The notes below the pieces were generated by a model. The model made no database searches. It was not told where the DNA came from and worked only from the letters and a program-made list of their open reading frames with translations. 31,518 nt of DNA, taken from assembly GCA_048882385.1 (NCBI GenBank), contig JBHLRQ010000030.1, positions 1 through 31,518 on the forward strand, in the 5' to 3' direction. Position numbers and translations under genes: made by a program. The stretch is from Candidatus Thorarchaeota archaeon (GTDB lineage: Archaea; Asgardarchaeota; Thorarchaeia; Thorarchaeales; Thorarchaeaceae). Shown here piece by piece: positions 23,510-27,919 of the stretch; position 1 is the first letter of the stretch; every line of letters starts with the position of its first letter.

Positions 23510-24871
23510 TCACTTACCCTGAACTGTAAGGAGATCACTAGTGGTTTGTGAGATACTCTCTGGACCATTTCCATTTAGGGTTCCATCCATGAGCGCTTGG
23601 TACGCGGTCATGTCGAAGTGTCCATGTCCAGACAGGTTGAAAACAATAGATCGAGATTCATTCTGCTTCTTTGCCTCTAATGCAATATCAATTACTGCTT
23701 TGATGGCGTGAGCAGATTCAGGTGCAGGTACAATACCTTCTGACCTTGCAAATAATACTCCAGCATTTAATACGTCAATTTGATCAAATGCTTGAGGATT
23801 GATTCTACCTTCTAATAGCAATGCACTCATTGTGGGTGCAACACCATGATACCTCAATCCACCAGCGTGGATCTTGGGTGGTGTGAAATCAGATCCCAAT
23901 GTATGCATCTTTAGTTTCGGAGTCATGCCTGCGGTATCGCCAAAGTCGTATTCGTACTTGCCTTTAGTGAGAGATGGACACGCAGTTGGTTCGGCAGCGA
24001 TGAATTCTGTTTCCTTGAATCTATCATCTGCCATGAAGGGATATGCAAGACCTGCAAAATTGCTACCTCCTCCCACACAGCCAATAACAGAGTCAGGAAC
24101 CTCTTCAATACTATCAAGTTGGGTAATTGCTTCTTGCCCTATGACACTTTGATGGAGCATGACAAAATTGAGTACTGAACCAAGTGTGTATTTTGTATTG
24201 TCATTATTGACAGTATCTTCAATCGCTTCACTGATTGCAATCCCTAATGTTCCTGGATGGTTTGGATTTTCAGCATTGACCTTTCTACCAAATTCAGTTC
24301 TGTCGGATGGACTTGGCACAATCTCCGCACCATATGTTCTCATGAGGATGCCGCGATACGCCTTCTGTTCATAGCTCACTCTGACCATGTATACCATAGC
24401 TTTGAGTCCAAAATAGGCACAAGCCAATGAGACAGCACTTCCCCACTGTCCTGCGCCAGTCTCGGTAGCCATACGTTCAATACCTTCTTGTTGGGCATAA
24501 TAGGCTTGAGCAGCCGCAGTGTTTAGCTTGTGGCTACCTGTGGGAGACACATCCTCTCGTTTGTAGTATATTCGACAGGGTGTCTTCAAGGCACGTTCCA
24601 ATCCAACAGCCCGCTGTAATGGCGTTGGACGACCCGATCGCATTAGGATTTCTCGAACTTCCCCAGGTATTGAAATGTTCTTATCCATTGAGACCTCTTG
24701 TTTGACACATTCGACAGGAAACAGGGCCATCAAGGCATCGGGACTAACTGGCTCTCCCGTCCCAGGGTTTAGGGGAGGTGGTAGAGGTTCTTTCAGATGA
24801 GGAAGAATATTCAGATAGTTCTTAGGTGTTTCCTCACTATCCAATAGTATTCTGGCTTTTTCGCTTTTCAT
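23510..24871 (-). CDS. trpB2: Tryptophan synthase beta chain, TrpB2 type
   Basis: PTGSHKLN (PLP Lys), [30 protein letters not shown] and FNLSGHG; TrpB2-type N-terminal extension; GGTGA SD; no trpA adjacent. Confidence 0.95.
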
Positions 24872-25043
24872 TGTTTATTCACCGTGTAATTGTTCGCTTC
24901 TGGGAAGTGTTGTCTTGTTTGAACTGTCATCGAGCAAGCTAAGTGGAGAGAAAGCTCAAGGAGTGTATAAGCAGAATCAGTTCTCAAAGAAGAAGTAACA
25001 AGAACACAGAGCGATCTGATTGGCGAACTTTCTAAACGGGTCA

Positions 25044-25085
25044 CTAGGGACCCAAAAGCCATTGGCCAAGGCACGCTCGTGTCAT
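25044..25085 (-). CDS. Candidate Trp-containing leader peptide MTRACLGQWLLGP
   Basis: ATG ACA CGA GCG TGC CTT GGC CAA TGG CTT TTG GGT CCC TAG TGA, located between a TATA-like box and trpB2. Confidence 0.4.
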   Translation of the reverse strand: MTRACLGQWLLGP

Positions 25086-25128
25086 GTTCTCACACTCAGA
25101 AACGATTATAGTCGTCGTACAAGGTTCA

Positions 25129-25140
25129 CTTTTAAATATT
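25129..25140 (-). promoter_or_regulatory. Candidate TATA box for the trpB2 leader transcript
   Basis: Minus strand AATATTTAAAAG, ~45 nt upstream of the leader ATG. It could instead serve the divergent kinase gene (plus strand TTTTAAATA). Confidence 0.4.
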
Positions 25141-25289
25141 GTGCATAAGTGTACTAGGATGTACGAAAATGTACATCAGAAGAAAAGTTGTATCTACCAA
25201 ATGTTTTTTGAAGGAAACATAATCGGGATGCACCTGAATCGCGCATAAATAGCAGACAATTCTCAACCCTGTGCGTACACTTAGTCACG

Positions 25290-27266
25290 GTGAACAATGT
25301 GGATGAAAATGCAAAATCCAATGGTGAACTCGCCATTTCAATATTGAAGAGTCTATTTGATTCTTCTCTACTTGGAGTGCTCATATTGCACGAGGGAGAG
25401 ATTGTCTATGTGAATAGTGCACTTTGTAAGACGCTTGGAATTGATTCAGACTGCTCAAAGCAACAGAAACAGCTAATTTCATCAGTCCTTGCTTCAGGAT
25501 TCAAAGACGAAGCGGTCGAAAGATACCGAAGCTTTGCATCTGGAAATACAGAAAAAGATCTTGGAAGGTATGAGTTCATAGGAGAAGATGGTGCAAAGCG
25601 ATACTTGGATTTGATATCAAATGCAGTGACAATCGGATCAAAGAAGTATCTTATCGCGTATAGTATTGATGCGAGTATAGAAGTAGTTACACAACACACA
25701 TTGAATACGGAACGAAAAGCATACAGCATCATAGCCGAAGCGGCATTGAGTACAGAGAGCTTGGAGAAGCTTTGTGATAGGATCCTCAAAGGACTAGTAA
25801 CTACTCTAGGTTTCGACTTGGGTACAATAAGACTCTATGATGAAGAAACACAAATGTTGACCCTTTATGCATCTGTGGGAATAGAAGAAGGAGGGACACC
25901 GAAATCAGTTCATAAAGATGACCCCAATTTTTTGGTTGCTAGAACAGCTAGGACATTGTCACCTCTTTTCACACCAGATATTGAACAATCACCTGAAAGC
26001 CAAGACCGCATGGCTCGAGCAAAAGAATTTAAGATTCGCTCCTTAATTTTCTGGCCAATAATTGGTTCCGATCAAAATCTTCTTGGAGTTATCAACATCG
26101 CTGCACATGAAGCGAAACCCTTAGGACAAGAAGACAGGACTGTCTTTGCGACAATAGCAGGGATGTTTTCAACAATCCTTGAAAGGCGGAGCGCAGAACA
26201 AGAACTCCAAGAAAGCCAAGAGAGGTTCATAGCTTTTGCAGACAATATGCCAGGACCTGTTTATATCAAAGATGACCTTTCGAAAGTTCTATTCATTAAC
26301 CGATATATGCGAGATATGGCACCCACACCAGCACGTGATAATTGGGAAGGGAAAAGTAACATAGACTTGTTCCGGGAGGAACGAGCAGATGTGCTGACTG
26401 AAGAAGACCAACGAGTTCTAAAGGAAGGTCCTTTGGATCGTGTCCACAGAACAGTTCGCGACGGAAAAATCAGAACCTTTCGAACACACAAGTTCCCCAT
26501 TCTTAGAGAAGGCAAACCTCCTCTAGTTGGTGGCTTTTCTATCGATATTACAGAGCAAATAGAAGCGCAGAATCAACGCGAAATGGCAAAAGCTAGAGCT
26601 GAATTTTTCAATGACTTGATGGCACACGATCTAAACAACATGCATCAAGGAATCATGTCGAGCTTGGAACTCATTTTGTCAGAAGAGGATCTACCTGACC
26701 ATCTTCGGAAAATGGCAGAGAGTGCACTCAAACAAGTTAATCGAAGTGTGTCACTAATTAATAATGTAAAGAAATTCGCCATGGTAAACAAAGAGGACAT
26801 TGTGCTTGAAAAGACCGACCCAGCAGAATCACTTGTTGCAGCAATTCAAATCATGCATCAGACATTTCCCAATCAGAATATTACAATCGATACAAACCTC
26901 ATGTCTGGAACCTACTGCATTATGGCAAATGACTTCCTCCAAGATGTGTTCTATAATATACTTCACAACGCAGTGAAATTTACTGAATCCGATGAAGTTA
27001 ACATCAGAGTGAATACATCATTGACTGATGAGGGAGAGTTCTTGCAATTTGAATTTGAAGACTGGGGCACTGGAATCAGCGACAGATTAAAGGAGAACAT
27101 ACTGACTGGTATTGATGAGAGAGTTCGGAGAGTTTCCGGAGTCGGTCTTACATTGGTCAAACAGATTGTCGGCCAATACAATGGAAAGGTATGGGTAGAA
27201 GACCGAGTAGAGGGAGATTTCACCAAAGGAACAAGAGTGGTGATAATGCTACCCAACGGTTGTTGA
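25290..27266 (+). CDS. Cytoplasmic sensor histidine kinase (PAS-GAF-PAS-HisKA-HATPase)
   Basis: H-box MAHDLNN, N-box NILHNAVKF, DWGTGI, GVGL; PAS signatures (IVYVNSA, LFINRY); GAF signature (WPII...LLGVINI); no TM. Confidence 0.93.
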   Translation: MNNVDENAKSNGELAISILKSLFDSSLLGVLILHEGEIVYVNSALCKTLGIDSDCSKQQKQLISSVLASGFKDEAVERYRSFASGNTEKDLGRYEFIGEDGAKRYLDLISNAVTIGSKKYLIAYSIDASIEVVTQHTLNTERKAYSIIAEAALSTESLEKLCDRILKGLVTTLGFDLGTIRLYDEETQMLTLYASVGIEEGGTPKSVHKDDPNFLVARTARTLSPLFTPDIEQSPESQDRMARAKEFKIRSLIFWPIIGSDQNLLGVINIAAHEAKPLGQEDRTVFATIAGMFSTILERRSAEQELQESQERFIAFADNMPGPVYIKDDLSKVLFINRYMRDMAPTPARDNWEGKSNIDLFREERADVLTEEDQRVLKEGPLDRVHRTVRDGKIRTFRTHKFPILREGKPPLVGGFSIDITEQIEAQNQREMAKARAEFFNDLMAHDLNNMHQGIMSSLELILSEEDLPDHLRKMAESALKQVNRSVSLINNVKKFAMVNKEDIVLEKTDPAESLVAAIQIMHQTFPNQNITIDTNLMSGTYCIMANDFLQDVFYNILHNAVKFTESDEVNIRVNTSLTDEGEFLQFEFEDWGTGISDRLKENILTGIDERVRRVSGVGLTLVKQIVGQYNGKVWVEDRVEGDFTKGTRVVIMLPNGC

Positions 27267-27361: not shown

Positions 27362-27919
27362 ATGGAAGAAGACTGTCCCAGCTATGTGCTGAAAATGGTT
27401 GCACTGGGTGATGGGGCAGTAGGCAAAACAAGTTGTATAATGCGTTACACAGAGGATAGTTTTGGAGAAAACTACAAGGCTACTATTGGAACCAACATTG
27501 CTGTGAAAATTGTAGAAATTGAACTGAGAAAGGGAGAACGGAAAAAAGCTCAGGTTGTTCTATGGGATTTAGCAGGCCAACCAACATACAAGGATCTGCG
27601 ATCAAGATACATGACAGGTTCATCAATTGCGTTTATTGTATATGACGTTACAAGACCACCGACATTCTTGAATGTCGCAGATTGGTACAATACGTTCGCG
27701 ACTGTTTGTCCCGAAGCAGTAGTAATTCTTGTAGCAAACAAGGTAGACTGCGAAGATCATTTGGTTCCAAGAGAAGCTGGAGAAATGGTCAGCCGATGGT
27801 TAGGAATAGACTGGATTGAAACGTCCGCTAAGACCGGCGAAAACGTAGAGATGATGTTCACTAAATGTGTAGAGAAAGCAATCCGAAAGGAAGAGAACCG
27901 ACTAGGTTATCAACTCTAG
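27362..27919 (+). CDS. Ras-superfamily small GTPase, Rab-like
   Basis: G1 GDGAVGKT, G2 YKATIG, G3 WDLAGQ, G4 NKVD, G5 ETSAK; no C-terminal Cys prenylation motif. Confidence 0.95.
   Translation: MEEDCPSYVLKMVALGDGAVGKTSCIMRYTEDSFGENYKATIGTNIAVKIVEIELRKGERKKAQVVLWDLAGQPTYKDLRSRYMTGSSIAFIVYDVTRPPTFLNVADWYNTFATVCPEAVVILVANKVDCEDHLVPREAGEMVSRWLGIDWIETSAKTGENVEMMFTKCVEKAIRKEENRLGYQL

Follow-up and report, generated by a model that had tools for sequence, protein, structure and literature searches.

Sensing of amino acids by leader peptides is textbook bacterial biology. Whether an archaeon could control a tryptophan gene in a similar manner is the question raised by the DNA upstream of trpB2 in the 31,518-nucleotide stretch analysed here (hereafter the window; contig JBHLRQ010000030.1 of assembly GCA_048882385.1, a Candidatus Thorarchaeota archaeon). 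A first-pass annotation of this DNA had proposed that a leader senses tryptophan for trpB2 through a translated open reading frame (ORF) containing a Trp codon, and the comparison of related genomes strongly supports the proposal. Our best reading is that a leader of ~235 nt is translated and reports charged tRNA-Trp to trpB2; we estimate the probability that it is a ribosome-mediated tryptophan sensor at about 0.8. A bacterial-style amino-acid-sensing leader peptide is thereby indicated in archaeal relatives of eukaryotes. In the literature searched, outside whose coverage most subscription journals fall, no description of archaeal leader-peptide sensing or of an Asgard trpB2 leader was found; the 'leader peptide' of PMC6393860 is that of bacteriocins. 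The leader and the gene that follows it consist of the following elements.

23510..24871, minus strand: trpB2, coding for a TrpB-like pyridoxal phosphate enzyme of 453 aa (ORF list and family profile matches)
24879..24883, minus strand: Shine-Dalgarno (SD) sequence of trpB2, GGUGA (GGTGA in DNA), assigned from sequence and conservation; the trpB2 ATG is at 24871
25044..25085, minus strand: ORF A, MTRACLGQWLLGP followed by TAG, 13 codons (ATG 25085-25083, TGG 25061-25059, TAG 25046-25044, then TGA)
25059..25065, minus strand: heptamer C-CAA-UGG, in which 25061-25059 is the ORF A Trp codon and 25062-25060 the ORF B AUG
25038..25053, minus strand: hairpin P2, GGGUC / GACCC, with arms 25053-25049 and 25042-25038, 5 nt after UGG and with the ORF A stop in its loop
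24868..25062, minus strand: ORF B, in the -1 frame relative to ORF A, 64 codons from the AUG at 25062 or 68 from the GTG at 25074
25092..25105, minus strand: predicted 5' strand of helix P0, UCGUUUCUGAGUGU, which includes the SD-like purines of ORF A (duplex prediction)
24894..24910, minus strand: predicted 3' strand of P0, ACACU...CAGAAGCGA, within the last part of ORF B
25004..25013, minus strand: candidate 3' strand of helix P1, CGCUCUGUGU, pairing with ACACGAGCG (25082-25074, the 5' part of ORF A) in minimum free energy folds

ORF A and its tryptophan codon

Orthologues of trpB2 with 76-95% identity are present in 20/27 other genomes of the genus, and in all of them an upstream block ~75 nt long is far better conserved than the trpB2 start itself. 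The 13-mer CTTGGCCAATGGC (+NNNNGGG) occurs as a single copy in the window genome. Across the genus the motif was found in 21 of 28 genomes, exactly those with trpB2, and the 7 genomes that lack the gene also lack the motif. ORF A is intact in all 21 trpB2-bearing genomes: it has 17 codons in 18 of them, 18 codons in 2 and 13 in the window, where a TAG that arose in the hairpin loop has shortened it, a change unique in the genus. The genus consensus of the peptide is M[TI]R[AV]CLGQW..G....PV-stop. Substitutions in ORF A are often synonymous (CGA/AGA for Arg, TGC/TGT for Cys, GTT/GTC for Val, TAG/TAA for the stop), and the two loop insertions seen in the genus are each of +3 nt.

For the rest of the family, 36 trpB2 loci of other genera were taken with their upstream DNA, which in 2 cases was too short to judge. 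The ORF A arrangement recurred, with a different sequence, in 34/34 assessable loci; examples of the peptides, each closed by a stop codon, are MSVRYCQWIAGRERPT, MASVRYGQWYMGPLRPV, MDVYRGQWHRGPRGPV, MVSRVYHYQWHWGPRGPV and (GTG)RTGEFGQWHEGPMGPV. Totals for the family refer to 53 valid loci, the truncated locus G355 having been dropped, and some scores to 54. All genomes are metagenome-assembled genomes of related organisms, and the counts overstate independence. The starts of trpB2 and ORF A were assigned by simple rules, six of them being corrected by hand in the folding analysis. CCAATGG is present in 51/53 valid loci and invariant in the multi-sequence alignment, and the base preceding CAA is C in 51/52 sequences, though the codon it closes encodes G, Y, C, S, R or L. 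Most of the 53 loci have one Trp codon in ORF A and about eleven have two. An SD-like match of at least 4 nt was found upstream of the ORF A start in 43/54 loci.

The TATA-like box, the 13-codon ORF with its Trp codon and the hairpin were all found on the minus strand where the first-pass annotation had placed them. That annotation had cautioned that a single Trp among 13 codons might be due to chance, an objection countered by the conservation of Gln-Trp in 21/21 genomes of the genus and 34/34 assessable loci of the family. It had also named in advance the finding that would speak against a sensor, namely orthologous leaders devoid of a conserved Trp-containing upstream ORF (uORF); the same 21 and 34 leaders all proved to have it.

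Conservation extends to the hairpin. P2 starts exactly 5 nt past UGG in 52/52 aligned family sequences, with a spacer free of insertions and deletions. Over these 52 sequences it is 90.4% paired, changes on both sides were seen at 4 of its 6 pairs, and its covariation score was reached by 0/500 shuffles.

The likeness to the TnaC leader peptide, also drawn earlier, did not survive the comparison. A single conserved Trp is common to both, and the Pro-TAG-TGA ending on which the analogy leaned is correctly described for the window but is peculiar to that genome: in its relatives ORF A ends in Pro-Val-stop or continues for 3-10 more codons. The distance from Trp to the stop, and with it the stop position, varies among the family loci (15, 27, 30, 39, 42, 45, 48 or 54 nt). 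Moreover, the tna operon degrades Trp, whereas trpB2 makes it. Where TnaC has a Trp-catabolic operon and a termination-factor site, the window has a gene for a TrpB-like synthase and downstream RNA that lies inside a conserved ORF.

Variants of the leader were seen on contig C6 of one family genome (G353), which carries two trpB2 paralogues (L086 and L098) ~10 kb apart, each with a leader variant of its own. In these leaders His-Trp (CAC-UGG or CAU-UGG) takes the place of Gln-Trp and ORF B is retained; in one of them the canonical Trp has been lost and a second Trp is kept against the hairpin.

The open -1 frame and the leader helices

Three features go beyond the first-pass annotation: ORF B, helix P0 and the TGTACA repeats of the promoter. 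The start codon of ORF B overlaps the Trp codon of ORF A (A-AUG-G), and in the window its TGA overlaps the trpB2 ATG (ATGA). This AUG is ATG in 51/53 loci, and in many of them it is the sole start codon of the frame; an SD-like match of at least 4 nt lies upstream of it in only 3/54. No full-length leader of the genus has a stop in this frame between the conserved block and the trpB2 start, and the open length of the frame to that start is ~60-75 codons. When stops were counted from the Trp codon to the trpB2 start, the 21 loci of the genus had 86 in the frame of ORF A, 8 in that of ORF B and 71 in the third; for the 32 valid loci of other genera the numbers were 96, 8 and 107. The 16 stops in the frame of ORF B lie in 14 loci, in 12 of which the stop is the terminal one of ORF B, no more than 20 nt from the trpB2 start; G343 and G346 have two each, at -47 and -43. 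Relative to the trpB2 start, the end of ORF B falls at -20 to +35 in 49/53 loci. The chance of finding the frame open was 0.06-0.18 per genome.

The amino-acid sequence of ORF B is not conserved, its substitutions show no codon-position bias, and the genomes read the conserved nucleotide block CCACACUCAGAUUCGG in either of two frames. Because third positions are not favoured and the block is read in two frames, the sequences indicate that it is the act of translating ORF B that is selected, not its product. A small conserved protein is excluded on the same grounds, and no Pfam or NCBIfam family was matched by the 68-aa ORF at 24868..25074. Two further candidates were rejected: an N-terminal extension of TrpB2, since the frame relative to trpB2 differs between genomes, and an upstream start in the frame of ORF B at -30, since a TGA closes the frame in the clade of the window and in other genera. 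The open frame also bears on the U/C-rich stretches (the pyrimidine run CTTCTTCTTT is at 24995-24986, minus strand): they fall within the conserved frame of ORF B and are not naked RNA.

The long-range helix P0 joins the 5' end of the predicted transcript (15-20 nt) to the conserved block CCACACUCAGAUUCGG, which is the 3' strand of the helix and lies shortly before trpB2. Pairing within the genus amounts to 80.4%, as against 34-55% in slid controls, with 20 compensatory cells and a score reached by 0/500 shuffles. Between genera both strands have changed completely and complementarity has been kept (ACCCUUUCC/GGAGAGGGU, ACCACUUUCAAGGAUUG/CAAUCCUUGAGAGUGG, CCCAUAGAGUGUGGC/GCCGUACUCUAUCGG), and the cognate duplex beat unrelated partners at the 5% level or better in 18/53 loci, where ~3 were expected. 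Candidate helix P1 would join the region of the ORF A start codon to a stretch past the ORF A stop; across genera its cognate duplex beat unrelated partners at 5% or better in 15/53 loci and is convincing in several genera.

Taken together, P0, P1 and P2 would close a domain of ~210 nt. Such a domain, along with the invariance of CCAAUGG and of third-codon positions at the nucleotide level, is what would be expected if the leader were a structured RNA (a riboswitch, or a tRNA- or protein-binding element) with CCAAUGG as its recognition site and the ORFs as by-products. We consider this very improbable. Structure offers no means of holding one frame open in ~50 genomes through sequence that is indel-rich and little conserved, and relatives put runs of Trp codons in the place of the motif (see below). 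An Rfam scan of 24700-25400 at E<=10 gave nothing relevant, the matches being two chance-level eukaryotic families (E 4-6).

Nor do the predicted folds, which show P0, P1 and P2, contain a terminator hairpin or a consistently sequestered trpB2 ribosome-binding site. The mean predicted unpaired probability of the trpB2 translation initiation region (TIR) was 0.546 in the free leader and 0.530 when the footprint of a ribosome at UGG was masked. Masking altered the predicted accessibility in 11/53 leaders, upwards in 4 and downwards in 7. The erm/cat systems of translational attenuation resemble the scheme proposed for the present leader in that a ribosome on a leader peptide stalls beside a hairpin; they differ in that here the modelled footprint shifts TIR accessibility in those 11 leaders only. 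Refolding of the erm or trpL kind, in which a stall would free the trpB2 SD, is thus unsupported by the folding models.

Leaders of other Asgard families and the trpB2 promoter

Outside the family, 40 trpB2 loci from 13 other Asgard families were sampled. In 22 of the 40 an upstream short ORF has 3-5 in-frame Trp codons within 12 codons. Examples are MTLAKTLSWCWQWPWRWR-stop, MLTEKMTFWRWQWQWRS-stop, ..FWRWQWCWRWQ-stop, SWRWWHWL-stop and LFWAWRWLTWP-stop, as well as WCWQWPWRWR. Such leaders were found in 12/14 loci of f9, the largest of these families, 3/3 of f18, 2/2 of f32 and 2/2 of the Odin-like f3; the sampled loci of f7, f21, f22, f23, f31 and f12 were without them. The Trp counts were mostly reached by 0/200 shuffles, and 3 Trp codons were reached on the antisense strand in 1/31 rows shown. 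Conservation of a Trp-codon leader runs through the Thorarchaeota family, and in much of the Asgard phylum trpB2 follows a Trp-rich leader peptide. ORF B does not go with them: 18/19 Trp-rich loci elsewhere had stops in all three frames, and since the open frame is missing there, ORF B is, as far as these sequences indicate, special to the Thorarchaeota family.

Several details of these leaders were noted. Alternating W-x-W-x-W peptides occur at L208-L221 (f9), L192, L193, L194, L204-L207 and L200. By eye only, a hairpin can be drawn over the final Trp codons and the stop, with arms that are not the same from genome to genome. A conserved CAUUGG lies downstream, and in f9 oligo-T runs of 5-9 are often seen. 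Four f3 loci (L030, L031, L197 and L198, in genomes of 1.3-1.4 Mb) have two upstream ORFs before trpB2; the first, MPWNG..., lies within a 13-bp stem (UUUCAGUAAGGGU / ACCCUUACUUGAAA) and the second ends in ..FWAWRWLTWP-stop. Short upstream ORFs with WWWW or NWW..W also precede bacterial trpB2 loci (L133, L135, L143, L147; L128, L134, L138, L153, L170) of Melioribacter/Bacteroidota and Patescibacteria, and are of the classical attenuator kind. Actinobacterial attenuators are described as preceding trp operons that include trpB2A (PMC1262725).

Compared with trpL-type attenuators (E. coli trpL and the actinobacterial ones), the leader in the window shows, immediately before a gene for Trp synthesis, a translatable short ORF with the regulating codon; a hairpin that follows this codon directly, with the stop close by; and conservation of both ORF and codon in orthologous leaders. 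The relatives of the Thorarchaeota family add the 3-5 Trp codons. The differences are the archaeal host and the one, sometimes two, Trp codons of ORF A, and neither a terminator hairpin with a U tract nor the mutually exclusive antiterminator and terminator hairpins of the type were seen in the window leader. Conversely, the second long overlapping ORF and the leader-spanning helix have no trpL counterpart. For want of a terminator/antiterminator pair and a U tract the leader falls outside the trpL class, but it would work like a bacterial leader-peptide sensor.

The first-pass annotation had inferred a translation-coupled, possibly FttA-dependent attenuation. Under such control the growing RNA would be shielded by translation of the leader, while a polymerase that had lost its ribosome would be halted by aCPSF1/FttA or its RNA degraded, the position of the ribosome at UGG deciding the outcome. 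A translated frame over the whole leader is indeed what anti-polarity would select, and the oligo-T runs of 5-9 after the Trp-rich leaders of f9 would suit it too, as a sequence feature in genomes that are AT-rich. The window leader, by contrast, contains no oligo-T run of 5 or more, and an early stall would uncouple the polymerase and lower expression in starvation, the reverse of what is required unless frameshifting is added. Transcription attenuation or polarity appears improbable, and the analogy with FttA is not supported.

Two further elements, both upstream of the leader, make up the promoter.

25130..25138, minus strand: TATA-like box, TATTTAAAA (from sequence; TTATAA/TTTAAA conserved in the genus)
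25140..25176, minus strand: four TGTACA-like repeats (TGTACA, GTACA, GTACA, TGCACA), operator-like, directly upstream of the TATA box

Judging from TATA spacing alone, transcription would start at ~25106-25109. In 18 aligned sequences of the genus the TGTAC and GTACA columns are invariant or almost so. The repeats resemble the TRP box of TrpY, the consensus of which is taken to be TGTACA. On this presumed consensus, the four repeats at the promoter of a trp gene look like a Trp-repressor operator of the TrpY type. The likeness to the Methanothermobacter system consists in repeated TGTACA-like hexamers set against the TATA box of a trp gene; PMC6737238 describes the binding of TrpY to TRP boxes at the promoter of trpY-trpE. 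In the genus of the window, and at loci L028, L029, L183-L187, L195, L196 and L201-L203, repeated TGTACA-like boxes adjoin the TATA box of trpB2. In the Thorarchaeota family boxes and leader co-occur, and several Asgard families without a Trp-rich leader have two TGTACA-like boxes against the TATA box. A loose TGTACA-repeat pattern gave 60 matches in the whole genome and is unspecific. Closely spaced ATGTACA...GTACA repeats that resemble the trpB2 operator also lie on contigs C1 (~10187) and C115 (~3625) of the window genome (G000).

Possible wirings of the leader and its genomic context

How the position of a ribosome at the Trp codon might be conveyed to trpB2 is a separate matter from the sensing itself. 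Of the possible wirings we tentatively place first an occlusion, in which translation of ORF B shuts trpB2 and a stall at UGG relieves the block. A ribosome would load on ORF A in the nascent RNA. With ample Trp-tRNA it would pass UGG, melt P2 and terminate, transiently exposing the AUG of ORF B, and ribosomes then translating ORF B would cross the SD and start codon of trpB2 and keep the gene occluded; by holding P0 and P1 open they would also permit continued loading of ORF A. With Trp-tRNA scarce, the ORF A ribosome would wait with UGG in its A site, covering the AUG of ORF B and with P2 at its entry channel. ORF B would then be silent, P0 and P1 would close the leader, and the closed leader would leave the trpB2 ribosome-binding site accessible, so that trpB2 could initiate from its own SD. 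Repressor control at the TGTACA repeats is probably superimposed.

The attraction of occlusion, tentative as the ranking is, lies in its needing known processes only and in its accounting for both the invariant AUG and the accessible TIR; the predicted unpaired probability of 0.55 fits the use by trpB2 of its own SD. Occlusion can be likened to ribosome-mediated occlusion of a ribosome-binding site in bacteria (PMC13285730), the repressive effect of ORF B being our deduction. Inhibitory overlapping uORFs such as uORF2 of ATF4 are similar in that an upstream ORF crosses the main start out of frame and stress prevents its use. They differ in the means of by-pass, which in the proposed scheme is a ribosome parked on the uORF start, not scanning and ternary-complex levels. 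Two overlapping upstream ORFs with the sensor codon lying over the second start recall the uORF logic of eukaryotes.

Several observations weigh against the sensor or against its wiring by occlusion. Translation of ORF A and ORF B and the direction of control are deduced from sequence, and the genomes of one family are non-independent samples. In the window itself ORF A is cut to 13 codons. Within the genus P1 is 73% paired and its covariation does not exceed that of shuffles. ORF B ends 43-47 nt early in two loci and is open for more than 100 codons, reaching into trpB2, in two others; it often ends as ATGA or a few nt from the start (+1 in 17 loci, +5 in 10), and in bacteria and haloarchaea an arrangement of the ATGA type usually produces positive coupling, not occlusion. 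No SD precedes the AUG of ORF B, and a ribosome initiating there would cover P2 with its footprint. Finally, occlusion explains the AUG and leaves the fixation of the rest of C-CAA-UGG, including the C kept in 51/52 sequences, without explanation.

The ATGA overlaps suggest the reverse wiring, in which ORF B, started at its invariant AUG, is coupled positively to trpB2, so that TrpB2 is made when Trp-tRNA is ample and switched off by a stall on ORF A. This would be the opposite of what is needed from an enzyme that makes Trp. It would also disagree with a promoter that resembles a Trp-repressor operator, on the presumed consensus, and with the Trp-rich leaders of bacterial biosynthetic type found in relatives; we give positive coupling very little credence.

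The fixed heptamer is better accommodated by frameshifting at a hungry codon. Here the waiting ribosome would slip by -1 at C-CAA-UGG into ORF B and reach trpB2, followed by termination-reinitiation; with ample Trp, ribosomes would stop at the ORF A stop and P1 and P0 would lock the leader, much as in prfB or Ty1, with an amino acid as the signal. The leader has the anatomy of such a cassette: a heptamer, a fixed 5-nt spacer, a GC hairpin, a near stop in the 0 frame and a -1 frame open for 60-75 codons. Of the three sequence features of a -1 frameshift cassette two are present, a stem-loop 5-9 nt downstream (P2, at 5 nt in 52/52 sequences and covarying) and a long open -1 frame with a nearby 0-frame stop (ORF B and ORF A); in place of the slippery X XXY YYZ there is C CAA UGG. 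With the programmed frameshifts of prfB (+1), Ty1 (+1) and dnaX (-1) the leader would share the decision at a slow A-site codon besides the heptamer, spacer, stem-loop, near 0-frame stop and long shifted frame; it would differ from them by the missing X XXY YYZ and by a -1 shift at a sense codon.

Further points suit a shift. The C before CAA, kept despite the varying amino acid, is expected if tRNA-Gln(UUG), which is present in the window genome, re-pairs on CCA. ORF B has practically no SD and is masked whenever ORF A is read, and the distance of 15-54 nt from its AUG to the ORF A stop argues against backward reinitiation. The P0 and P1 strands inside ORF B would make a self-locking loop, and the TTG with which trpB2 starts in 13/54 loci suits reinitiation. 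On the other side, CAA is not slippery, as CCA pairs with the Gln anticodon at only 2/3 positions, and none of the leaders has taken up a codon that really slips (AAA, UUU). For the invariant AUG the simplest role is that of a start codon. Re-pairing would be poor at the CAC-UGG and CAU-UGG of the G353 paralogues, and yet ORF B is kept there. The folding models do not make the trpB2 TIR dependent on unfolding. Hungry-codon frameshifting as such is established, according to a 2016 review (PMC5009743), which states that slow A-site codons weigh more for +1 than for -1 shifts and that no starvation-specific use of the phenomenon is known. On balance we hold a frameshift, the boldest of the rival readings, to be unlikely. 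Were it true, hungry-codon frameshifting would for the first time be seen to serve regulation in nature, and in Asgard archaea; the rate of frameshifting, not stalling itself, would set TrpB2 synthesis. Occlusion and frameshifting would both give a sensible direction of control, with more TrpB2 when Trp is short. The leader is an easily mutated test bed for the choice of SD-less starts in archaea, for occlusion versus coupling by uORFs and for control by hungry-codon frameshifting.

As for the regulated gene, its product matches NF009057 (TrpB2-type) with 674 bits against a cut-off of 366, and its score for TIGR00263 (trpB) falls under the cut-off of that family. The window genome, of 3.7 Mb and 95% complete, gave no Pfam match for TrpA, the chorismate-binding domain (TrpE) or indole-3-glycerol phosphate synthase (IGPS, TrpC), all of which were matched in 14/14 control genomes. 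trpB2 thus seems to be without other partners of the pathway in this genome and may be its sole Trp-pathway enzyme. Given the missing TrpA, TrpE and TrpC and what is established about TrpB2 enzymes, it probably makes Trp from salvaged indole.

One genome (G376) carries two trpB2 genes (L066 and L067); one has a leader of the type of its own genus, and the other is of the window-genus type in both gene and leader, which could be due to transfer or to a mixed bin. In the window the neighbour of trpB2 is a PAS/GAF histidine kinase gene on the opposite strand (Pfam/NCBIfam). An ORF of 1644 aa at 12334-17268 (+) is without a Pfam family apart from a sub-threshold Big_1 match. At 27362-27919 (+) lies a gene for a small GTPase of the Ras/Roc family (Pfam Ras, E 7e-42), one of the eukaryote-like signatures by which Asgard archaea are typified.

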